This document shows positions 37,035 to 64,000 of a stretch of DNA of 64,000 nt, in pieces. A program made the translations under genes and the position numbers. The stretch covers positions 1 through 64,000 of the forward strand of contig JABANN010000096.1 of the NCBI GenBank assembly GCA_013115125.1, in the 5' to 3' direction. How positions within the stretch are numbered: position 1 is the first letter of the stretch; every line of letters begins with the position of its first letter. The stretch is from Perkinsus olseni. Its lineage: Eukaryota. The notes under the pieces are model-generated. The model was not told the DNA's origin, searched no databases, and worked only from the letters and a program-made list of their open reading frames with translations.

Positions 37035-37778
37035 TGAACTTCTCCTAGGCGTGACCTTCTGCTTTCAAATATTTTATCATCTTTCCGATCTTTTTTGATC
37101 CGGCCGTGTACATTTTTGCTTCATGCTCTTCATCATCGGTCATCGGCTTCCTCTAACGATTATGTGTGTTGCTTGGGGTGAGGGGAGCGAAGTCTGCAAG
37201 GACCTCCCGGCAAAGATATTTCTCAGGAATTTCCGGTTTCCTTCACTGCTTTTCCAGAAATCGCCGGTCTTTTTAACTATTCTCTCTTGCTTCACTTTTT
37301 TTCGGTTGGATCCAAATCCCGGTCTGCCATGTCCGCCCTCGCTCAGCATTGGGAGGAGAGAGGGCGGTTCGCGAATCGAATAGTCGGGGAGAAGAGGCAC
37401 TCTTGCCCGTTGCACGCAACCACACCAATGTCTCCTTAAGCGCATTAGCCAGTTAGCTTTGCCTCGATGTTACAGGTCATGTATTGCATGATTTGAGTGT
37501 GCGTCACACGCGGTTCAGTGGTATCTGGAATCTTACGGGGATCTATTGTAACTATGTGGCATCTTGATTATTCTCGTTGCGCATTTGTGACTCTTAGTAT
37601 TACTAACTAGTAACGGACTGTTGGTGTCAGATCCAGGAATCCTGGATCTGACGGTCAGTCCTGGACCAGGATCTGTTAGGATGCAAAAAGTGAGCTAATT
37701 TGCGATTTTGTTTTGCCCATGCGATGGTGAAAGGGGAAATTATGTTCTCACCTATTTTGTGCTTCTTCCCCATTATCA

Positions 37779-40700
37779 ATGAGAATCTTCAGCCTCTTCT
37801 GGGCAACTCTGATGGTAGCAATGAAAATTGTGCGTCAACGGCTACCTCGTCATCATTTTAGGTCGCTCAAGTAGCTGTGGAGGCTGACCCGTCGAAGTAA
37901 GTAAAATCCTTGTCACCCGTCTCTGTACGCTACCAACTTGGACAGGGACAGTAGGCAGCTGCCTCCGCAACCACAGCTGCAAGTGTGGCCCGTTCCGAAG
38001 AAAATAGAAGTTTTGTCAGAGGGTGAGTTCATAGGTCATTCACTAGACAATAGTGTCGAAGTATAGTGTAAGTAATGACGTAAACAATCATTCAAGTCAA
38101 ATGGCCGTTAATGATGGAGAGGGGCCACTAGCATGACGCTCGATGATGTCAGTTTAACGGCAGGTGCTCCGCTCCCTTGTGGGTTGCCAGACATTCACTG
38201 AACCCAACAATTCAGAACTTGAGCCAAGATGACTACGGACTGACTTATACCATCTCATCAGTACTGATCGCACAACAACCAACCAGTGTTACCACAGCTG
38301 AAAGGGTGCACGCATTCACACTGAGATTGGGAGATAGACAACAATAAGACACTCCTTCAAGTCAGCACACTATCGTGGAGACTAGAGACACAGAAGGGAA
38401 TCACAACAAGTTTGCGTCACTAGTGAGCGTCAGAACCTGAGCTCAATCAAATGATGGAGAGATTTATGATTTCATGTCCATCACTGGTTTCCAAACACGC
38501 GGCCAAGAATTCGCAACAACAAGGGAGGGGGCAGACAGCCACAAGGCAAATAAAAATACATCAGCAAAGAGGTGCTCGAATCGAGGACCCGTGAAATGTA
38601 TTTTGCCCCACGGTGACACAGCTGGGCTATCACCAGTGATTCGGGGACCAGTCTATAAAAGGACGTTATCACAGACGACCTCGACACCCCATCAATGGTT
38701 TCATGTTTGGCCAGATTCGCCGCCGAGGGACTTTCCCGATCGTTTCCATCTGTCTCTGTCCATTGACGAAGCTTCGTTCAAAGGATCGCCAATCTCGCCG
38801 CCACAGCTGCGCTTCCTGTACCACTACTACGGTCGTCCCACGAGAGGTCGGATTCGCGGTATCGCTCGTCTGGACGGGGAGTATCTTTAGGTCACTCTAG
38901 CCCGTTACATGTTCGGCTAAGCTACACCCCTTTTGGCAAGGAAGGGAGCTATAAGATTCTCTGCGATATTCCGTGGTGTAAGGGTAGAGCGAGTTCTTAC
39001 GAAGGAGCCGTCTATTTGTTTGGGACTATGGTGAGTTCTTGGGCGCCACCGCTATACCAACTTTTCCGTAACTTCAGCAACTTTTTGGATGAGACAGTTA
39101 CAGGAATCACCCTCTTGCCGCTTTTGCGTATTTCAGTATCGTTCAGGGTTGATTCGGCCGTCCTTTCCTAAAAACCTATATGCCCCAATTCTCCGCCTCA
39201 GTACAGAAAGCGGAGTTTGATTGTTCCCTCCTGATTTTGGGTGATCGTGGTTGGGTGTTCGCACGACAGGCTTCGAGCCTATGACCGTTGGGATCCGCCT
39301 TTTTTCGTGGAGGCTATCGAAGGCTTGTCTTCTGATCTCCCTCGCATTCGGTTCACTGCTAGTTATTTCGTCTATGGGCATAGATCGATTCATACTTCGA
39401 GTGCTCTCTTTCTATGGAATCTGTTTCGTATCAGATACAAATTATCGAGGGGTATCCCTATGTCAATCATACGGTCCCTCAGAAGTTCGTCATCGACGAC
39501 TATCCGTCATTCCCCCATAGAGGAATGCTTTTTGATACGGGAAGGCACTATCTCCCTATGGAGATCTTATATAAGAATCTTCAACTCATGTCGTTTAATA
39601 AGGTAAGATTTTTGTTCATGCACTTTTACAAGCGCGAGCTCTGGAAATTACCAAATATCAATTTCGAGTTTGACTTTGATTGGAGCATTTTGTCCGCTTT
39701 GCGAAGGCCTCTTAGCAGTAAGTACACGCTCAAAGTTCTGGTGAGTTCACAAGTACTTAAGTTCAGTAAGTTTAAGTAAGTACACTTTAAGAGACTCCTC
39801 CAGTGCGTGTTCTTTTTGCCTTTCTTTCTTCCACTATCGTCCTGTGTCATGCTTACCTACGCAAACGGCTCCGTTTCGATCGCATCGCCACTTGACGCTT
39901 TCCTCGGGTCAGATGAATGTCCTCCATTGGCACCTCACTGATGACATCGCCTTCTCGTTGGACCTAACCAGGGACCGAAGATACTCTCGTTTGCAAGAGG
40001 GAAATCCTTATCCCTATACGTACCGCCCTCCGACCTACTCTGTGACTGTCACTCTTCAACTTTAGATACTCCAAGCGAGAGATTATCAAGTTTGTCAAGT
40101 TTGCCAACCTGCTCGGCATTAAAGTCATACCGGAGATCGACGTGCCCGCCCACACTCAGAGTTGGATCCGAGGGTGAGCCGGAAGCGGGAGGTTAGGTGC
40201 TCCGCTCATCCCGTTCAACCTTGAGCGGGGCAAGGGCCCGTCCGGGGCGATCGCTATCCCTCCTGTTGGGAACTTCTGGTTTACAATGACCAGGATACTG
40301 GGCTGAGCGATGAGCAAGAAGTGCCCGGCCTTGGCAGCCAAGGCCAACTACCATCTCATCGTGATGCCATCTCAGGTCGCTTCATAGAACTTTGCGTGTA
40401 GCAGCTACTCGAAACCGGGCACTACCTTCCGCCGATTCTCTCATGAAGACGTGCTGGCCACAGGTCACAATGTCCATGCATATCCTTCGATTAACATTGT
40501 CGAACCAAACGTTGTCGATTTTCCGACTTTGGCCTATTTTTCGCAGACACGCACCCCCAAACGATACGTTCGCGACCTCTGTCGCGAGTTCCTTATCGAT
40601 ATTGGTTGACGCTTGATGCTCCGCGGTCAGTTTGCACATGAGCGCGCGCCGAAGCCGAGCTAGGAAATCTTGGCCGAGCTCACCCTAGCAGGGAAGAATG

Positions 40701-43883: not shown

Positions 43884-45325
43884 GTTTATTCCATTTGCGC
43901 GCATCTTCCTCTCTGCCGTTGAGCGTGTCGAAACTCAGAGCTAGATCCCTCGCTTCCTTTGTGTTGAGCAATCTCCATCCAGAGAGGACACAAATCGGTC
44001 TCTATCGCCCTTGAAGTGAATGAGAGTCGGCTGAGAGAACCATTTACACTTTTTCAGAGGACGTCTTCGCTGTCGGGCCCGAGCTTTGATGGGGAGCTCA
44101 TCAAGACCAACTCATTATTGTCATTGTCTAACAGAAGATAGACTCCAGGTTGGAATCCTCGGCAGCTCACGCCGTAGATTCCTTCATTTTTATGAACTTC
44201 TTTGTCGAGTCGTGGTTAGTTCGTCATCAATACATTCCGCTGAGTCCGGGACTTCCGGACCGGGAGGGCGGGCAGGCGTCGTCGCCCTCCTGGGGATGGA
44301 GTTATGAATTTTCATATTATTCGGTAAGTATGAGGAAGCGGTTTAATTTGTTGTTTCGTGCGTAAGCTCATCACTAAGAATAATCCTCTTTGAGAAATCC
44401 GGCGTTGGACGTACGGAAAAGATTTTCATGCCAACTGTTCGCGTTGAGACCAGTCAATTCGCATTTGTGGGAAGGCCAAAGGTGAATTTTCATCGAAAGA
44501 ATGTTCCGAGTTCCAAGCAGAACTTTGAAAATTTTTCGAAAGGCTCCTCCAAGGCTAAGCTTCGAGCTTGAACCTCGCACCCCAAGGCTCGAGGCTCGGC
44601 TCGGGCTGCCGCCTGAAGCGGAAGGGGCAATAAGGCAATTAATTCCAAGGGGGGGCCATTAATTCGCCCCTTTGAGAGGGCCGAGGGGACCCGACGTCAC
44701 AGACTAATACCAGAGTAAAATGCCACTGGACAGAACTATCGGATAGTTCTGTCCAGTGGATCCACCCAGCGGATCCTCCCATTAGGATCCGTCCATTACC
44801 GCCCAGCGGACGGCCAACGAAGTATGTCCCGCGGCGACTGCAGTATGCTGCATATTGTATGCAGTGTGGTGAACCCATGACTATGGGCCATAGCATCTAA
44901 CTAGCATGAAGGGTCATGTGACATGACTCATGTCGTAGGCGTGCAACTCCACATACTCAATCGCGGAGTGCTGATGTTGGCAAATTGTGTTCCCGAAATT
45001 CATTTTCTGCAAGTCCCAAGTTGGGAGTCCCAACCGGCGGGAATGCAACACAAAATTGAGCTTGTAGATGAAACAGGTAAACCCGAATCAATAGTCGATG
45101 TACGCCGAAACTGTGCCAAACCTATAGCACGGACAAGGCAAAAAGGTTAATGATCGTACAAGCTTGAATCGTGAAGATTCTTTATTGATCTGAAGATTAA
45201 TCTTGAAAGAAGATTAGCATGGTAATTATCGAGAAAAATGGTCGGGTCTACTTATTTAGCTCAAGAGTGAACCATCAAGGCATCAACTTGCGATGCGCGT
45301 CTTCGTGCCCCTATGACACTGCTTT

Positions 45326-46393
45326 TCATACGGATAAAAGAACGCGGCCGTTGGGGGCGCCGTTGCCTCCATTACCACCGGCACCTCCGTTGTCATTGCC
45401 CCCGCTGCCGCCTGGACCGCCATTGCCGCCATTATTATCGGCACCGTTGCCGCCAGAACCACCGTTGCCGCCAGGGCCGTCTGGGCCAGAGCTGCCGCCT
45501 CTGCCGCCTTGGCCGCCGCTGCCGTCATTATCGCTGCCACCGCGGCCGCCGGCACCGCCGTCCCCGCCAGCATTGCCGCCGCCACCATTACCACCATTAC
45601 CGCCATTTCCACCGTTGCCGCCAGGACCGAGAGGGCCGCCATTACCGCCGTTGCCACCGGCACCACCATTACCGCCCTGAAGGAGGCGACCATTAGGAGC
45701 ACCGTTGCCCCCATTACCACCGGTGCCTCCGTTGTTATTGCCCCCGCTGCCGCCTGGACCGCCATTGCCGCCATTATTATCGGCACCGTTGCCGCCAGAA
45801 CCACCGTTGCCGCNNNNNNNNNNNNNNNNNNNNNNNNNNNNNNNNNNNNNNNNNNNNNNNNNNNNNNNNNNNNNNNNNNNNNNNNNNNNNNNNNNNNNNN
45901 NNNNNNNNNCCGCCAGGGCTGTCTGGGCCAGAGCTGCCGCCTCTGCCGCCTTGGCCGCCGCTGCCGCCATTATCGCTGCCACCGCGGCCGCCAGCACCGC
46001 CGTCCCCGCCAGCATTGCCGCCGCCACCATTACCACCATTACCGCCATTTCCACCGTTGCCGCCAGGACCGAGAGGGCCGCCATTACCGCCATTGCCACC
46101 GGCACCACCATTACCGCCCTGAAGGAGGCGAAGAGCATTGCTTGACAAATAGCGACCGGTGAAGTGATCTAAAGCACTGATGGCGTAGTCATCATGAAAC
46201 TGTTTCATTGAATTGAATTGAATTGTTTCACAAGGATGCGCTACCTGTTTCATTGAAACAGGTAGCGCATCCTTGTGTCGGCATCCTGGGCAACCGGGAA
46301 GCTGAACTTTTCAACAGCGTCTTGAGGGCCATCGTCTTGAATGGCAACGACAAGAGAGATGATGAGCAGAGCAGCTACGACAGGAGGGGTCAT
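45326..46393 (-). CDS. Secreted Gly/Asn-rich GGX-repeat protein; frame interrupted by a 59-bp insertion (possible pseudogene) and spanning an assembly gap
   Basis: Signal peptide MTPPVVAALLIISLVVA and at least two 114-aa (342-bp) GGN/GGA/GGP repeat units each starting RLLQ. The insertion at 46195-46253 introduces a stop and a frameshift. Confidence 0.8.
45814..45909. other. Assembly gap (N run) inside the tandem repeat
   Basis: Run of N; the flanks are equivalent positions of the 342-bp unit, so unit number is unresolved. Confidence 1.
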
Positions 46394-48499
46394 GTTCACG
46401 GGAAAAATTGAACCGAACTGAACTGCACTCGTCAGAGCTTCAATATAAAGTAGAGATCCCATCCATTCCTGATTGGAGTTGATGCAAGGCAAATGAGAAT
46501 CGACCTCAGCATGGGTGCCACTGCATATGCCGTTAACGAATGTGTTTCTGCCGTTCGATAAGAATCAGACCCACGCGAACTTAAGGCAAAGAGAACGTGT
46601 AAACCAGAGATTGGCCTGTTTCGAGCTTCATTCAATAAACACGTCACGCTAAATGCGACAAATCACGCTGCGTGACTCACGCACATACACAAGGCGCCAC
46701 GAGTCGCAGCGCCGGAGCGTATTTACGGACCCGGTACGATGCTTTGATGATCAGAAACGATACGAAATGGTCGCACTGAGATGCCCAGAACATTAAGGCA
46801 CGGTAGGACGGCCGCTCTCTGTGCGTGTGAGTGAATATGATGGCATGTACGGGCGTAATATTGGGAGACATCAGAGAGACACGCTATGGGGCATAACTAG
46901 CGGCCTTCCCGTGCTGGATATTTGGCCTCCGCTCTTCTTGGTCTGAGGCTTGTATCGTCTCTTCTTGTGCTTAGTAGAGCTTCAGAGACTTCACTACGAT
47001 CCAAATGTAAGTCCACGTGACCGCAAGCTAGAGCAGTGATCGTAGACCAATGCACTGACCGAGAGAGCAAGGGGGCTGTCCCTGGGACATGTCCCTCGCC
47101 TTGCTCCGTCACTGTTTGTCAGAATGTAAAATAACGGGGAGACGATGAAGCGATTCACCGCTGAGAACTCAATACGCGAGACCAATAGATTGGGAGTAGG
47201 AACTCGGAGATGATCTCGGTGGTGGCTCTGTCGCATTGATTATTACAGTTGTACTTTGTACAGCAGTAACAGCACGCATGCTCAAAAAGCTCCGTCTTCG
47301 AGTTAGCGTCACGCTCGAAGAGGTTTCGTAACTTCTCACCAATTATTATTCACACTTTCTCCTTTTTTTCAAGTTGCAATACCTCGCTCCTGATAACTCG
47401 CATGCACTTCAGCGACGGCTAGTCTGCGTTGCGTCAACTCGCGGTGTGGGGGGTCCTTGATTGAGGCCGGCGCGGAGAGATCTGTATTGTATCGTTCAAT
47501 GGCTAGTTGCGACTCGCTGCAAGTCTTGGAGACTTACTAAGTCTGACTTGGTCTCCAGACTTATGCCATTCCAAGGTTCGGAAGATCTTTTGACGCTTCC
47601 GAAACCGTGGTGTAACTCTATCATTTTGCCAGTGACGTGGCGACAATGACATCTCGTGTTAGCGGCTGCAGACGGGCTATGTAATGGTGAACGTCGATGC
47701 TCAGCAATTGGTAGCTGGATGAAGGTGTACGAGTATTCGAAACATGAGTCCAAAATGTACGAGTATTCGATGTACGAGTCGTGAACATTTCGTAGCATAT
47801 GGCTGCGGTTAATACTCGACAATATCCTACCCAATACCTCCAATCTCGCAAAACCCGAGCGACCGCTGGCGAGCCTCCCCTCAGGGGAGGCCTTTTTGGT
47901 CAGGTGCCTTGGATTTTGTACTTTGCCCTGACGCGGCCAGCCGCTGGCTTCACTGACGGACTGTCAGTGACGGTATGTGACTCGGCCCGATCGCAGGTTT
48001 CCGCCGGCCGTCGGTGTTTGCAATTACCGTAAGCCCACACGGCGTCTGAATTTGGCGTGGTCCGAGCCTTGAGCAGCGAGGTTCGAACGGTGACGCTATG
48101 GCGTACCAAAGACCGTGACGCAGCACGGTGCACCAAAAACCAAAATGCCCCAAGAAAAAAACCGATTGTAGATATCTATGTGTAGGACTCACATACGAAT
48201 TTTCAGGGCCATATTCGCATGCTGTGGCTCACACTATTCGTCGACAGCTTAACCTGTGATTTTGATACTTCAGTGGTATTTGCACAGGGCAGACGGTTTA
48301 CATTGACCTCGTGGCCCCTATAATGGCTCAAATCTAATGATCAAAAACAGGACTATCTAGAAGGGAGCAATGGCTCTTTAATGGCGGGGTTCGCCCTCGC
48401 TCATTGATCTTGAGTAGCTTCTGCTGGGGTCATTCGGTTAGTATCTTTTCTGTGGGACGAGCGGGGAAAAGGTTGACATGTAGCTTCTGACCAGCAGTT

Positions 48500-49067: not shown

Positions 49068-50135
49068 ATGAACATCCCTGCCTCTCTCTTCTCTATCGGG
49101 GTGCTTCTTGCGACCTCCTGTGGTGGTGAGGTGATCAGGATAAAGATATCCACACAGCAGACTAAACCCTGGGCGCCTCGGAGACGTATCGTCACTCCTT
49201 TGAAGGCCGACACTCAAGACCTTTACGCCGTTATTGATACTGGAAGTCCTTACACTCATTTGGTATGGAAATCATGGTACGAAAGTTTCCCGCAGAACAA
49301 GTGCGATGACTTTTTTTACAAGTGCTACGACTGCAACCCATCGCCGGTCGAGCTGCACGCCGCCAAGAAGATCACTTTTGTTGACAAAACTTCGCTCACC
49401 ATATTCCCACACGCTGGGGACTTCTACTTCAACGGTGTGACTGTCGAGGACATAGACTTCGGAGTGGTGATGGATGCCTCACACGGCGCCTGGGCAGCTC
49501 TCGGCCTCGGACCACAGGACACCAGCCCGCCGTTTCCGCGCTTCGTTGATCAGCTGGTCGATGCGGAACTCATCGACACTCCTGTTTTTGCGGTTAATTT
49601 ATCGTCCGGGGACTCCCCATCAGGCGAGCTTATCATTGGTGGTGACGATCCTAGTAAATATGAGGGTCCTCTGGGGTACATGGATGTTGTCGACATACAG
49701 CTTCATACCAACAAACTTGAAGCTTTCGCCATCGGAAGCAAGACGCAAAAAGAGGCTGAGCCAGTTGTCTTTGACACAGGCTCCTCTTTTATAAGCATCC
49801 CCAGGCGGCTCCGTTCACAAGTCTTAGAGCTTCTCAGCACCGCCGGCACGAAGAAGGTGGAGGTTTTTGAACAGGGTGATGTCTACGGCGTCGACTGCAA
49901 AGATGTCGACTACTTGCCGGTTATGAGTTTCACTGTGAAAGGGATGCCCGGCAAAGCTGATGTTACGATTGCGATACCTCCTAAAGCATGCATCGTTACG
50001 CCCGAGCCTGACGTATGTATCTTGTACCTTGATTTCGGTGACAGGTTGATTTTGGGATTACCAGCATTTGTCGGTCACTACTACTCCTTCGACTGGGTTG
50101 GAGCTCGTGTAGGTGTCGCCAAGGCGAAGGAATGA
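49068..50135 (+). CDS. Pepsin-family (A1) aspartic protease, secreted, intronless
   Basis: 355-aa ORF with signal peptide, two catalytic motifs VIDTGS and VFDTGS, ALGLG, GELIIGGDDPSKYEG, ILG...F...YYSFD...RVGVA. Confidence 0.97.
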   Translation: MNIPASLFSIGVLLATSCGGEVIRIKISTQQTKPWAPRRRIVTPLKADTQDLYAVIDTGSPYTHLVWKSWYESFPQNKCDDFFYKCYDCNPSPVELHAAKKITFVDKTSLTIFPHAGDFYFNGVTVEDIDFGVVMDASHGAWAALGLGPQDTSPPFPRFVDQLVDAELIDTPVFAVNLSSGDSPSGELIIGGDDPSKYEGPLGYMDVVDIQLHTNKLEAFAIGSKTQKEAEPVVFDTGSSFISIPRRLRSQVLELLSTAGTKKVEVFEQGDVYGVDCKDVDYLPVMSFTVKGMPGKADVTIAIPPKACIVTPEPDVCILYLDFGDRLILGLPAFVGHYYSFDWVGARVGVAKAKE

Positions 50136-51260: not shown

Positions 51261-53224
51261 GCGCATGGGGCTTCTTCGTAGGTGACACCTCAGTCCGAGA
51301 GTTTCTCTCTGATATCGCCTGACTTGGGCACCCGCGCCTTCTCATGCGTTTGATATCTACTTTCCCACACCATTTACCCCTCAGCGTTTGGCGTGCTGCT
51401 GCTTCCGGCACTCACGGTTTCCTTGGGGAGCCAAAACTCTGCTTCCTCTCGCCTCTCCTACATCTATCGTGAATATCCCTCTTGTAAAAGACCGTTTTTA
51501 GTGTCACGTTATGGTTGAGAATGATGACGAGATCGCTCCTTTGGGAAGCTGGCCGTGCTTGCCGCGACTTGCCGTACTCGGAGTACATTCACGGGCTGGT
51601 AGGCAGTGACTCACCACCCACCCACCAGATTTGATAATCGCTCTACATACACACCCCTCCGTACATAAAGCCCACAGGAACTGGGCACATCGGCGTTGGC
51701 GACTCGCCGTTGGCGAGAGCTCGACTAACTTAATGACCGGCGTTGGACTATAGGCTCATACACACAGGAGACTCCACAGAGAGCCCGGCTCAACCCAAAC
51801 TCAGAGCCTCCTACGACGTACGAGAGGTTGATTTCTGAGCTCTTCAACTGCTATTGCGTTTAGATTGAGAACGTTCATTGGACATAGGGAGGCTTGGTTG
51901 GTGTTCGAGGAGACGAAAGAATGACCTTGACAACTTTGACCACGAGTTGCACTCGGGGTCTGAAGACCGCTGGCGGTAGCCACTTCTCCCACGGTCGGTT
52001 TCCGACGAGCAGCCTTCGGAAGAGAAGGCTGCCTATCAGGTTGCCAACACCTGTGGTACCAGCAAATGAATAATCTCGGTAACAGTCTTCTCAGGCCAGG
52101 AAGACCTCGGGTCCACCGAGACAGTATCCAGGATTCCTGAATCAGGAAATCAGCCGAATTCTCACCGTAGCTCATCTAGCGGGCCGGGTGTTAGTGGAAC
52201 TTCCACTGTGGAAGCATCAGTCGTTTTTCCCTCGTGACTTCGGCGAAGTCACTTCGCGCTTCTCTAGTCAACTACATTGCTTTGGGTCCGGGCTGCGGTC
52301 TTTCTACCCGAGACATTCGTCCGTGGTTGACGGTAAACCGGCGGGTTTAAGCTGCTACCGATGCAGCTAACTCAGTTATGATGCAATTTACTCCCCGATG
52401 GCGAGTAGCATTGGGTTGAAGGAGACCAAGATGGATGGTCGAAAGAAGGAGGCTCCACTCAGTGGAGTCCACTGCAATATTCCGGGATCTTTGAACAGTT
52501 GACCTGCTTGTAGTACTAGCCTAATATAAACGCATTTCTGCCATGTTCGCGGAGTGCACCTTCTGGACGACAGAGTGTGAATTCTCTAGGCACAGAAACG
52601 CCTTATCATGCCAAACGATCGACAGTTGCGCGTCTCGATGTGCGGGGGCGGCGCTAGTCAAACGGGTGGCTAAGCTTGGAGAGGAGCCCTGTGACGTCGA
52701 ACATCGATTTGGCTCTACTGGCCAAGACGTTCACAGCGATCTTGAAATTGTGACTCGCTCTGGCATTGTCATCACCATGACGACTCGACGAGTCATTATG
52801 ACGAGCCCCCCCCCTTTCTGCCAGGAGGCTGCCGACTCGGCAGTGCCGAGTACAGTCAGAGCCGCTCAAGCCGTGTAGGTCGCGTACTGCAAAGTCTGCC
52901 CAGTGAACCAGATGCACTATAATAACAACTACCTCCATTGCTGCTGCGTACCCACCTTGCTCTATGCTCGCCTTTGCTCGTTATACGTACGTTCGTCCCA
53001 GCAGACACGTGCGTTCCTCGCCGTGCTATTGAACATACGTTCACCCGTCATCCAGAACGAGGTCAGTTCTCTCCGAACTCCTCTCGACTCCGGTTTACTC
53101 TTCTTTGAGCCCCGTCTCAAATAGCCATACTGTACTGAGTTATAGTGCAGCAGTGGTAGCAGCTCCTTGCTCTCGGAGCGAGGGATACCCTTTAACTCGC
53201 GCATACGTTCTTCAATGGTGACCA

Positions 53225-53861
53225 TTGAATGGTCTCGACTACCTCCTTTCTCGCCTGTATTGTATTATTTGTCGGTTCCTGCGCCGCAGGACCTGCGGTG
53301 AAAATATAATTAGGATGCCCATATCCAGGATTCTAACTACGGGAAAGCCGCCAGAGCTACTTATGGTGACCCCTATAAAGGTCGACGGTCTAGATATGTA
53401 CGCCCAGGTGGACACCGGAAGTTCTCACACACAGTTGGTATGGCGGAAATGGTATGAGAGCGTTCGTACAGGAGGGTGTCATGATCTCTTCTACACGTGC
53501 TATCACTGCGCCCCAACTAAATGCCAAAGGGCTCCTACCACCACGACTATCCATTATGTTGATGGGTCTTCATTGACCGTATAATACGGTCAATTAGCCG
53601 TGTTTGGGAATACGGTCCGTATTCCCACATTCTGGAGGCTTCTCTTTTCACGGCGCAGCTGCCAAAGGCATGAAGTTCGCCTTGGCCACTGGAGCTTCAC
53701 GTGGGCCGTGGGCGGCTATTGGCCTCGGGTCGCGAAGCGTCAAAGCACCGTATAAGCGCTTTGTCGATCAGCTACGATCCCAGCATCTGATCGACAGCGG
53801 AGTCTTCTCGCTGTACTTATCGTCTGGAGGAGCTCCCAGCGGTGAGCTCATAATCGGAGGG
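53225..53861 (+). pseudogene. Aspartic protease pseudogene, paralog of 49068-50135
   Basis: MYAQVDTGSSHTQLVWRKWYES...CHDLFYTCYHC, then FPHSGGF...WAAIGLG...RFVDQL...GELIIGG in another frame. A 40-bp insertion (53583-53622) causes a stop and a frameshift. The C-terminal lobe is missing and there is no ATG at the homologous start. Confidence 0.93.
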
Positions 53862-56800
53862 GTCCCCTGTGCTGATTCCCACCACTGTGGTGGGAATCAG
53901 CTGCACAGCTAGCGCTAGTGTTAGACTCTGTCTCTGCACACGAGCGTTCGAACTAGTTGGGCTCATTTCCGTTCGGGTGAGACGGCTGTGTCCTTGCGGA
54001 GGCACGCGGGTCGCGCCGTCCGGTTTCCGGTGAACCGTTCCCCGTTCCAGTCTTATCCGCCTCACCCCTCAACGCCCTGTGAGCAATGTTAAATTCCTCC
54101 TTTTTCACTCTAGTCGTATTGTGAAGATCGCTTTGTGATTGCTGTCCCTATGGAGTCGCTTCCCCTTGTGTTACGCTGATATATCTAACCTCGCGCTACT
54201 ACTGTAATTGTAATCTATAAGTTAGGGTCAGGCTAACCAAGTCTATCTTGTGTTAACTGAATAAGTGGGATTGCCCACAAGGGCTCGTACACAGTCGGGT
54301 GTCACGAGTCTGATTAATGGTAATTATTTCAACTCTTGCGTTGGCAGTTCGTTCATCAGCCAACTATAAACTCAATTAACGTCCAATTGGCAAACCGGGA
54401 TCATACGGCGAAGCTTGCTAGATCCTAGGAACGCTGATTTTCGTACTGCGGAAACTCGTACTATATTGCAGTATCTTATTCCGTGTCGAGCCCCATGAAC
54501 ACCGGCCTGCCCGCTCAGCCTTCAGGAGACCAAAAGTAAACCACCAGCTCCAGTCGTCCTTAACTATCGGTCATATTGCTTTCCGTGTATCAACACTAAT
54601 CGTAAAATAATTATCCTGTGCGATAAAAGTTCTCTTCCCGAGTCTGTAACCCCGCCGTAGTTTGGCCCCCCTTTCAACTCGACACAGCTCTGTTAAAGAA
54701 AGCAGACACGTTCCTGACTTCAACTGCTACCGGCATGCGCAGCTCGAGAATTCAGGAACGGAATTATGCCGCTTATTACTCTAGCGGCGGAAAGGCCTAT
54801 TCCACGTAGCGGCGGTCCGAAGGGAGAAAATTCACTGGAAGGTAGCAGCTCCGTCTTGTGGAGTAGTGAGCCACTCACAGGGGACTCGGCTGGTTTGTCT
54901 GAGCAAGAGAGCACGGAGCTAGCCAGGCAAGTAGAGGAGCTCAAGGCTAAATGGGATAAAATAACCACAAGTGCGTTGGAGAAGTCGTTCGCTCGCATGA
55001 TCACCATTTACGCGTTACGCGCAGCGCGTGTCAAGGAATCGTGTCAAGAATATGCGATTCATCTTGTTTAGCACGCGGTCTGCATGAAAATGGGATTACC
55101 TCCTCATTGTCGTCGGAAGCACCCTGGTGTGGTTGTTAGTGTCCTTGTATCGCCATCAGAAATAAGAATGTCGTTGTGGAATTTGCATCCGCATGTGCGA
55201 GGATTAATGATAATCTTAGTGATGACGCGCCACTCGTGTATGTGCACGGTCCCTAGATGACTTTCAGTTGTGCAGGTCCTGGCCTCGAGTACGGCTGGTC
55301 GGAAAAAAATTCTCAGCTCATTCACGATGCTTGTATAGCTTCTCTAGATTCCTTGAACGATGACATAAGGACTGAACTGGACCTGACTTATAACAGTAAC
55401 AACATGGATGTAGATGGGGAGCTGGCATGAAACCACCCTCCACCTACCGTACTTCTGGAGACCTGCAAAGCCTTGAGCAACCCTTTTACTCGAACTGACG
55501 TTGAAACCACAATTCTCGACGGACAGCAGTGTCCACTTCGAGTAGCAGGAAGTTATTTCATGCTAGAAAGAGTTGAGAATGAAAAAGCACTTGCAGGAGC
55601 AGCTGTTCGGCGGCCACTATGATTTGACAGACGTTACTCTGATTGGGCAGTATCTTGAAGCATTCAACTATATCAGTCATTCACACAGCCTGCATGAATG
55701 ACTCGCAGGGTTGGGCGTTCAATGGTGGCTAGGATTTCTTGAGTAACATAGGCCTAGACTGGATCTCGCTATGTACTACAGTACCCAATGTTAATTAATC
55801 ACATGAGCAAGATCTAAACTTATTTCATAAATATTGCACTGAAGGAAACTACTTGGCCGAAAGTAATTCTCCTTGTTTTTCATACAGCTTCTCGCATTGG
55901 ACAGAACTGTAGATCAGGCCCGACCGATTCTCACTTGCAGATACAAGATCAATGGTATCAGATGGTCCCTCCGAGCCCGAGGGTTGCTATAGGGCACTCA
56001 GCGGTCTATCCGACTCTGAGTTCTACAGGGCGAATGACGATGCTCATGTCCACGCTCGGCTTGTCAGATTTCCTGTGTCGACGGAACACCAAGGAGAAAA
56101 GATTGAAGTTACGCTGAAGAACTACCCCTACGGGACTTCACGAAGGAAGTGCAATCAGGTCGCTTTCAAAGTGACCGCAGCTAAGCCCTTCACTACGGGT
56201 AGCATAGGGAGAATGTTATCCCTGAGTTGACTCTGTATGAATAGCACCCGCACTCGCTCGTCGCTGTTGATGCCCGATTAGAATGCAGCAGAAATAGATG
56301 AGAATGAGGTAGATCGGGTACTGAGTTGACAGAAAATGCGTAGAGCAGTCGGGTTAATGGGAGTGAATGGGAAAAGGCTTGTGAGGTTGGTGTCGGGGCA
56401 TGCAGAGGGTATACAACGGAGTTCGACTCGCAATATGAAAAACACCAGCGAAAAAACAATTCACTTCGCGGATACGGGTGAGCCTACATTGGACAGTGTG
56501 AAGCGCGAATCGTTCTGTTGATCGCGTTATTGTGAGGAAGGGGGATGCGAATACTCCAGCGGTAAACGACACGTTCTCTTGACTGTTCTCACGAACTCTT
56601 GGCTAATGATAATATTCCCTGGTGGCAATATTAGAGCCACGGTTGTACATTTTAGCTACTGAATACAACATTGAGAATTTAGTTTCATGCCGAGTTGATG
56701 AACATTGTCGATCACGATCTATGAGAATCGCCCAAATCTCAGGCGATGGGTCGGCAATGGTGACATCACGAAAATTGAAGACTGGCCAACACACGGCCGT

Positions 56801-62333: not shown

Positions 62334-64000
62334 TCAACCTGATATGAAGAAGGTGGACTGTGGTAGGCTCATGAAGTATTTGCAGGAGCAGACCTCGATT
62401 CCGTAGACCCTAACGCTATGGCTATGAAGTTCTCGTCCCCTAGCTATCGTATTTCCTACGATTTCTTCGCTTGTCGTTAGATCTCCCCCAATCCGTTCTA
62501 CTCTAGTTTTGAGCTGAATGCTATTCTGAGAGTAGTGCATGGTTCTCTGGTCCGTTTTCAACCTACCTCACTCCCAATTCTGAATATTCAGATTGTAGCT
62601 CTTCAAGAAAGCGGTCTCTCCATCGGACCCTTGAAGAATGCCTGCGAACTCTTGTCAGCGAGACTCTCTTCTACAGGAAGTCACTTGCAACCTTCGGTGG
62701 CCGACGACGCTACAGGTAGCCCCTATCGGCTGATGATGGCACGATTGCGTCATCAGCTTGAGACGCCATCATTCACCTGCGATTTCCTTCAGCTGAAAAA
62801 CTGCATGTCTCGAGTGAGAAGGTGCTGGAGAACTTCGGTCCACTGGGAGTTGTGAAGTATCTCCTTTGTGTGCGTGCAGATTGATACCACTCCTTTCACT
62901 GCTCCTAGGCACTCGCCTCCGGTTTTACAGGTAGAGGGCTCTACTAGTGGACTTTTTGTACTTCTAAGCTGTATTGCGGAGGTTATGACCGAATTGTAGT
63001 AGATCAGCTCTGGTCCACGCTCACTTTTTCGGGGTCCCACTGGAACCGTCCCAGGTTCGATCCTCGGGGCTCTCGTTTTTCGGCAGGTATCGGAAGAATC
63101 TGGAGACTGTTCGAGAGCAGTGGAGTGTAGTCATGGACGGCAGAGGTAAATGGCATTTCAATGGGGATAGGATACATAGCGAATGCAACTTTTCATGAGC
63201 CTCATTCTCGACGACCTCATTCGAGGTCGTTCATCTTCATCCATCTGCAGTCGCTTCTTTCGACCGCTCGCGCACGCGCCTCGAGTAGTAGCAGCCTTCC
63301 TCTCAGCTCCCCTTCCGTCGGAAGGTTCACCGATGAAGGTAGTAGACTCATCAATGAACATCCCCGACTTGCCGTAGCGCGTCTTCAAGATATCTGCAAC
63401 CTTGAATATGCGCGGCGTTCATTGCAGCTGCCAGCTGCTCACGCCATCCTATTCAGTATCAATGACAGCATACCGCCTACGGCGTAGGCGGTATGCTGTG
63501 ATTGTCACGGCCTCTGATTGATAGCTCCTACGGCCACCTTAAATGCCCTTCCCCAGCCAGGAAAGCCATGTTCTCAGTCATGTTCTTTCTGTCGGCCTGC
63601 TCTTCTCGAACCCTGGTTCTCCAACCATCAGGTATGCGTCGGAGACGTATTGAAGGTACTCGAAGGGCACACGGAGAAGCAAGAGTCATCAGAAGCCCTA
63701 CGGAAATTGGCAATTGACGTGTAGGCTGCTTGAGGGAGAGTGATGGTTATTCAACTCTGTCCTTACTGAGCGAACCCTCCAGGAGGGAAGGGCGCTACGC
63801 TGCTCTCCCAAGGATGGCATTCCTTCTCCTTCGGGATATCCAGGTATAAGCACTGTGAGGAGCTTGCCTCCGATCTTACCCAGACGGCCAATCCCAGCGA
63901 GATTCCACCGCCTAATGTCGGCCGAGGTGCCCAGGAGAAGCGCACTTCGACCATCACCGAAGACATTTTCGTGAGCTCGCGATCCGAACTCGAATCAGCC
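62334..64000 (-). CDS. Hypothetical multi-exon gene, probably entering from beyond the window end
   Basis: Minus-strand AG/GT-bounded segments VADILKTRYGKSGMFIDESTTFI and LKTRVERIGGDLTTSEEI. No family recognised. Confidence 0.35.

Follow-up and report, generated by a model that had tools for sequence, protein, structure and literature searches.

The 64-kb stretch of Perkinsus olseni DNA analysed here (hereafter the window) contains two aspartic-protease paralogs, one intact and one broken, which are listed with the other features of the locus in Table 1. All relatives of the intact paralog are from Perkinsus. The broken paralog was delimited by tblastn with P0013, an intact relative of 391 aa from another isolate, and the Pfam scan of the protease ORFs returned the Asp family only. 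When a closer intact allele of the broken paralog was sought, P0013 (80% identity) was the sole match. The C-terminal half of the broken paralog is absent from the window: the homology stops at 53861, and the pseudogene contains no counterpart of residues 193-352 of the relative. At least three disabling lesions are present in the pseudogene. One of them is a 40-nt insert, with which the second frame change found by tblastn with P0013 coincides exactly. Since the three pieces lying between the lesions are free of stop codons, the gene died recently.

Two repeated sequences adjoin the pseudogene. On its right side, about 40 nt at 53898-53937, to the right of the unpaired palindrome at 53871-53901, are covered at 5-10 times the depth, with loose ends on both sides, and are therefore repeated elsewhere in the genome. 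This depth suggests that the protease gene lost its end when unrelated repeated DNA was joined to it, and the palindrome is possibly a one-sided scar at such a junction with unrelated DNA. Just upstream of the pseudogene start, a 48-nt core at 53102-53149, part of a wider repeat at 52904-53171, reaches about 150 times the single-copy depth in DNA contigs. The same core has many different flanks and an extremely high depth in a run that may be of RNA, and it occurs once in the window. It was considered as a transposon end or a small RNA and rejected in both roles on the basis of its single copy in the window, its overlap with an ORF that has no protein relatives and its unremarkable fold (z values of -1.55 and -0.96). 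The Rfam search of 52850-53260 gave no match at E ≤ 1.

The 40-nt insert belongs to the segment 53572-53627 which, read directly, consists of two perfect palindromes of 11+1+11 nt with 10 bases between them. The initial annotation of this DNA had described two 11-bp palindromes with 1-nt spacers and a 10-nt filler, and the sequence itself bears this out. The overlap of the outer arms is an 8-bp target duplication, ACCGTATT, and the base at either centre complements the target base that would adjoin an inserted element. The target and the two complementary spacers had also been predicted, and they hold at 53583 as well as at 53616. Altogether 48 bases stand in place of 8, which is a net gain of 40, and since 40 is not divisible by 3 the reading frame changes at the insert. 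No local template of at least 7 nt was found for the filler at 53595-53604 within 400 nt, the best local matches (6-7 nt) being at the chance level. By eye, CCGTGTT in the filler resembles the target core with one change, and a mutated third copy of the target is a possible, unproven source.

The alignment of the intact paralog (49068-50135) with the broken one (53225-53861), which the initial annotation had put forward as a check, was carried out at the DNA level. It contains one 40-column gap, located at the insert, and no further gap until the homology ends at about 53861. The relatives read through the insert site uninterrupted, as TLTVFPHFG in P0013 and as SLTIFPHAG in the intact paralog. 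The single gap confirms that the 40 nt are an insertion with respect to the ancestral state given by the paralog. The assertion that this footprint knocks out the gene is not established: the 40 nt do shift the frame, but at least two other disabling lesions are present, any of which may have come first.

Table 1 Features of the protease locus and hairpin scars in the window
Feature	Position	Strand or frame	Details
Intact aspartic-protease paralog	49068-50135	+	355 aa; scar-free; 100% identity to a P. olseni protein; reference for the ancestral state
Broken aspartic-protease paralog	53229-53861	+	tblastn with P0013, 80-85% identity per piece; Pfam Asp, E 8.1e-07
P0013 residues 1-20	53229-53288	frame 3	tblastn
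P0013 residues 17-112	53291-53581	frame 2	tblastn
P0013 residues 111-192	53616-53861	frame 3	tblastn
Left flank arm, native	53572-53582	+	ATTGACCGTAT; last 7 bases (53576-53582) ACCGTAT = target positions 1-7
Predicted left hairpin apex base	53583	+	A, complement of target position 8 (T)
Left palindromic (P-nucleotide) tract	53584-53594	+	ATACGGTCAAT, reverse complement of 53572-53582
10-nt filler	53595-53604	+	TAGCCGTGTT
Right palindromic (P-nucleotide) tract	53605-53615	+	TGGGAATACGG, reverse complement of 53617-53627
Predicted right hairpin apex base	53616	+	T, complement of target position 1 (A)
Right flank arm, native	53617-53627	+	CCGTATTCCCA; first 7 bases (53617-53623) CCGTATT = target positions 2-8
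Canonical 22-bp scar, target TCCTGCGG	53277-53298	+	14-nt insertion; frameshift in the signal-peptide region, codons 18-19
Canonical 22-bp scar, target CAATGGTC	53213-53234	+	overlaps the start codon region
Unpaired 15+1+15 palindrome	53871-53901	+	begins 10 nt past the end of the protease homology; loose contig ends at 53896-53898 and 53937
Four canonical scars just upstream of the pseudogene, local cluster	52193-52850	+	starts 52193, 52236, 52453, 52829
Canonical scars, start positions	1564, 1617, 2726, 5558, 18288, 44913, 51109, 52193, 52236, 52453, 52829, 53213, 53277, 59283, 59970		
Second extended scar, target ATGAAACA	46194-46277	+	left arm 7, 20-nt filler, right arm 24
Third extended scar, target TCCAGGAT	37626-37672	+	left arm 13, 6-nt filler, right arm 6
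Empty target CTACTGGC in the haplotype of the window	52715-52722	+	14 extra bases in the second haplotype of runs X1 and X6
Contig with the 40-nt scar, runs X1 and X6	52974-53780		807 nt
Contig with the 40-nt scar, run X7	53527-53916		390 nt

Structures of this type recur across the window. Perfect palindromes with arms of at least 9 nt numbered 11 with a 1-nt spacer, as against 1, 1 and 0 with spacers of 0, 2 and 4 nt, and none appeared in 20 shuffles. With arms of exactly 7 nt, 38 had a 1-nt spacer, as against 5, 6 and 5 with spacers of 0, 2 and 4 nt. This latter class is explained by a stereotyped 22-bp form composed of target bases t1-t7, the full reverse complement of the target and t2-t8. 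At a target length k of 8 and with a 1-nt trim, 15 perfect examples of this canonical form were found in the window and none in shuffles. The window contains no canonical form at k = 6, 7 or 9-12 with the 1-nt trim, none at k ≥ 5 without the trim and none at k ≥ 7 with a 2-nt trim.

A scan for the complete rule required two palindromes with 1-nt centres, an overlap of their outer arms by an 8-bp target and complementarity of each centre to an outer target base. It detected 18 palindrome pairs in the window (15 canonical and 3 extended with filler) and 0 in 10 shuffles. The initial annotation had regarded the scars in general as insertions at an 8-bp duplicated site, and all 18 of the 18 rule-obeying sites agree with 8 bp and a 1-nt offset. 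An unbiased scan for a 6-nt core in a direct-inverted-direct arrangement also gave 18 sites, and cores of 5, 7 and 8 nt gave none. In the unbiased set, both centres were complementary at 15 sites, one at 3 and neither at 0, which makes 33 of 36 centres as against the 25% expected by chance. In one of the extended scars, at 46194-46277, the filler (46209-46228) contains TGAAT three times in tandem, which looks like iterative, slipped synthesis during end joining.

These regularities bear on the idea that the scars arose independently of any transposon, by repair of random double-strand breaks in which fold-back priming or template switching copied the flank inverted. Templated inverted duplications of about 5-34 bp, formed via fold-back at yeast breaks, are described in the available part of one report (PMC11724301), and they resemble the P. 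olseni scars as short inverted duplications of the flank at a repaired break. However, the products of fold-back, which depends on a loop and on microhomology, should vary in length, whereas the scars always have the 8-bp overlap and the 1-nt spacer, and nearly all of their centres are complementary. In the accessible descriptions, fold-back insertions show neither a constant overlap of 8 bp nor a constant centre of 1 nt, and they lack a target-site bias. In the window, moreover, palindromes whose spacer is 0, 2 or 4 nt do not exceed the background. We therefore consider fold-back repair a very improbable source of the scars.

When mismatches were tolerated, 15, 11, 11 and 21 sites were found at 0, 1, 2 and 3 mismatches, respectively, as against 0, 0, 0.3 and 3.1 in shuffles. 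This roughly flat series points to a long-running process with neutral decay, of which it would be expected. Including the decayed copies, the scars total about 40-58 in 64 kb, i.e. one per approximately 1.1-1.6 kb. They are clustered: 8 of 40 lie within the 1.8 kb of 52100-53900 (binomial p = 1e-5) and none in the 24-36-kb region. The cluster could reflect local hopping, relaxed selection or both. When scar positions were set against the Pfam-matching ORFs of the window, no scars were found in the intact protease paralog or in the other such open frames (the S1-P1 nuclease, the pieces of SAM decarboxylase and GH20 and the MFS_5 piece). This fits with selection against scars in functioning genes.

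Several long palindromes with a 1-nt spacer have no partner that obeys the rule, namely those at 44723-44759 (arms of 18), 63460-63504 (22, with one mismatch), 53871-53901 (15), 40327-40345 (9) and 47873-47891 (9). Deletion or rearrangement of the other flank may have left them as one-sided scars. The window also includes an assembly gap of 96 N at 45814-45909.

That the scars are insertions follows from three comparisons: the intact paralog is without the 40 nt, P0013 has neither the 40 nt nor the 14-nt insertion at 53277-53298 (it reads VGSCGENIIRM at the latter site), and two haplotypes differ at 52715-52722. The relatives that give the polarity of the 40-nt insert are 50-85% identical. As to the haplotypes, a second one occurs in X1 and X6 with roughly half the depth, and its 14 extra bases are placed around 52707-52714. 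On realignment by hand, these correspond to a 22-bp scar at CTACTGGC with one centre base departing from the rule. The site is thus a polymorphic scar, empty in one haplotype and with a 14-nt scar in the other.

The 40-nt scar itself is unchanged, without any differences, in the contigs of three public runs which represent three samples and at least two studies. No allele lacking it was found in the contigs of X1, X6 and X7, and the contig of X8 stops at 53573, at a depth of 2, and so does not cover the scar. The depth over the pseudogene corresponds to about one haplotype in the runs examined; other haplotypes may be too divergent or may lack the pseudogene. The presence of an identical sequence in the runs from several samples also argues against the palindromes being an artefact of sequencing or assembly. 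Library preparation can create palindromes and one of the runs compared, X1, is a possible source of the window, but the decay series (15/11/11/21 sites at 0-3 mismatches) and the freedom of the recognised intact genes from scars also contradict an artefact, which we find hardly credible.

The 40-nt insert is probably a scar of the repair that followed the excision of a hAT-type cut-and-paste DNA transposon. We infer the element, the enzyme and the repair steps from the structure of the scars, their rule, their recurrence, their polarity as insertions and their target bias, all of which are observed directly. According to this scheme, an element would have inserted into the protease paralog at ACCGTATT and duplicated the 8 bp. 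During excision, the transposase would nick one nucleotide into each flank, and the 3'-OH of the flank would attack the opposite strand to form a covalent hairpin on each flank. The 2004 work of Zhou and colleagues on Hermes is said to have placed the first hAT nick one nucleotide inside the flank. The hairpin apex would be the complement of the target base adjoining the element. The left hairpin would consist of ...ACCGTAT joined to AATACGGT..., with its mirror image on the right flank. The host would open both hairpins on the far strand and no closer than 12 nt to the apex, which would generate long 3' overhangs of palindromic P nucleotides. The opened top strands would be ATTGACCGTAT-A-ATACGGTCAAT on the left and TGGGAATACGG-T-CCGTATTCCCA on the right, and these predicted strands match the observed 53572-53627 exactly.

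By the usual route, the overhangs, complementary over the 8 target-derived bases, would anneal and the flaps would be trimmed to give the canonical 22-bp scar, i.e. the target minus its last base, the inverted target and the target minus its first base. At 53572-53627, the ends would have been joined end to end with 10 filler bases and without annealing; both 12-nt tracts would be kept and a 40-nt frameshift would result. The bases inserted at each site are the reverse complement of the flanks of that site, and the fillers vary from one site to the next, so that the insert itself is not a mobile sequence. The possibility that the 40 nt are a miniature mobile element was likewise discarded, as there is no common inserted sequence between sites.

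The target sites may provide an independent point in favour of a hAT-like enzyme. Among the 40 best scars, counted symmetrically, T at position 2 or A at position 7 was found in 37 of 80 cases (binomial p = 3e-5) and C at position 3 or G at position 6 in 36 of 80, which suggests that the targets are biased to nTCnnGAn. Hermes, according to the accessible part of PMC10368747, makes 8-bp duplications and prefers nTnnnnAn. It is the nTnnnnAn bias of the scar population which may speak for the hAT-like enzyme. With C at position 2 and T at position 7, the target ACCGTATT itself does not fit nTnnnnAn.

The scars might also be excision footprints of another superfamily that makes duplications of about 8 bp and flank hairpins, either Mutator-like or one of the poorly studied 8-bp families, to which Zisupton and Novosib belong. 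The Mutator-like element Muta1 resembles the case described here in its 8- or 9-bp duplications and in the hairpins formed on the flanking DNA (PMC5499845, in the part available), and the ORFs of the window include no transposase which would decide the superfamily. However, in the same source, as far as it extends, a hairpin of 43+43 nt is reported for Muta1, with precise excision in more than 90% of the yeast events, whereas the window contains no canonical scars at k = 9 and none without the offset. With respect to the footprint expected of MULEs (a 9-bp or 8-11-bp duplication with an offset-free hairpin), the window gave 0 forms at k = 9-11 and 0 without the trim. The agreement of the nTnnnnAn bias with that reported for Hermes (PMC10368747, in the accessible part) also stands against another superfamily. 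We consider such an origin unlikely and the excision of a hAT-like element the better explanation.

The proposed excision mechanism is of a known kind, and the scar at 53572-53627 is an unusually long-armed case of it. In the available descriptions, the footprints of hAT elements (Ac/Ds, Tam3, hobo, Hermes, TcBuster and Tol2) have an 8-bp duplication and inverted flank copies centred on the complement of the element-adjacent base, as here. They also show microhomology joining, which is proposed here for the canonical scars, and the nTnnnnAn preference, towards which the population of Perkinsus scars is biased. The rule for the palindrome centre as the complement of the element-adjacent base is taken from the accessible part of PMC5873905. 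The portion of that paper available gives arms of up to 20 nt in yeast and of a few nucleotides in Candida and plants, and a few nucleotides are added by TcBuster in human cells (PMC3499496, in part). In contrast to the short tracts reported in these plant, Candida and human systems, both tracts at 53572-53627 are of 12 nt and are accompanied by a filler. The usual Perkinsus product is a uniform 22-bp target/inverted-target/target form, which was not found described for hAT elements in the literature covered. A further difference is that no donor element is present in the window.

The closest likeness in arm length is to the Ds footprints in budding yeast (Lazarow et al. 2012 and Yu et al. 2004, both cited in PMC5873905), whose arms also reach up to 20 nt in the text available. 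Microhomology was found there at 88-89% of the joints (PMC5873905, in part), and the long arms together with the microhomology imply hairpin opening far from the apex. The yeast Ds products are, as described there, experimental, from one reporter locus and heterogeneous, whereas those of Perkinsus are natural, fixed and genome-embedded, with one dominant product.

The P nucleotides at the coding joints of V(D)J recombination by RAG and the case of Transib share with the P. olseni scars, in the descriptions accessible to us, a flank hairpin of the transposase type that is opened away from its apex, and the addition of palindromic bases. Hairpins of RAG and Transib lack the 1-nt offset, and Transib makes 5-bp duplications. 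Neither even palindromes nor forms with k = 5 are enriched in the window.

The search for the element itself covered exact direct repeats of 8 bp that are separated by 30-8000 bp and whose inverted termini match at 11 or more of 14 positions, and it gave no candidate for a TIR element in the 64 kb. No transposase domain was detected with Pfam in the 299 stop-to-stop ORFs of at least 70 aa in the window or in the three protease ORFs. This set comprised 78 of the 80 ORFs of at least 110 aa, two protease ORFs having been scanned separately, and all 221 ORFs of 70-109 aa. The Pfam families found in the window are of host type only (S1-P1 nuclease, SAM decarboxylase, GH20, MFS_5 and Asp), and the Rfam search of the whole window returned nothing at the gathering threshold. 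The initial annotation had recommended a search for paralogs or alleles with an intact site or for a TIR element. A paralog with an intact site is indeed present, and neither a scar-free allele nor a TIR element was found in the 64 kb.

The lack of an element in 64 kb despite about 40-58 scars would agree with a domesticated hAT-like transposase or another nuclease which makes 8-bp-staggered breaks and hairpinned ends, the element never having been inserted. A domesticated hAT transposase that forms hairpins, Kat1, is cited in the accessible part of PMC10368747. According to established transposition chemistry, however, hairpin formation should need a transposon end at each flank, and the 8 bp duplicated on both flanks would be the product of integration followed by gap repair. 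To our knowledge, no nuclease gives the hairpin-scar pattern. A domesticated enzyme thus seems to us quite unlikely, and integration and excision of a hAT-like element remain our preferred explanation of the scars.

We found no report of palindromic scars or of hAT elements in Perkinsus in the literature covered, outside which most subscription journals lie. The Dada transposons known from P. marinus belong to a different superfamily (PMC3706591, in the part available). Within the same literature, scars of such density and uniformity seem to be unreported for Perkinsus. What seems to be new is the host and the scale, i.e. about 40-58 scars in 64 kb with one dominant 22-bp product and no element in the window. 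The 22-bp product may already have been described for yeast. We propose tentatively, as a conjecture with slightly less than even odds, that the P. olseni genome is peppered with hairpin scars left by a hAT-like transposase that has long been very active but whose elements are seldom found inserted, and that the hairpins are repaired by opening far from the apex and annealing over the 8-bp target.

The 40-nt scar accounts precisely for the origin of one lesion of a pseudogene, with the ancestral state provided by an internal paralog. If the observed density holds genome-wide, excision scars would be a dominant indel class in Perkinsus and could serve as datable markers of known polarity for the haplotypes and isolates of this polyploid organism, and gene annotators would be warned that 14-nt insertions of the scar form break otherwise open frames. 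The uniform 22-bp product would then report an unusual route of hairpin repair, in which long 3' overhangs are annealed over the target duplication, in an alveolate parasite of clams whose DNA repair has been little studied. If the genome-wide reading is true, the scars would record both the history of transposition and the end-joining pathway of the host, and the process behind them would be an important and hitherto undescribed cause of indels, frameshifts and pseudogenes in the lineage of this parasite.
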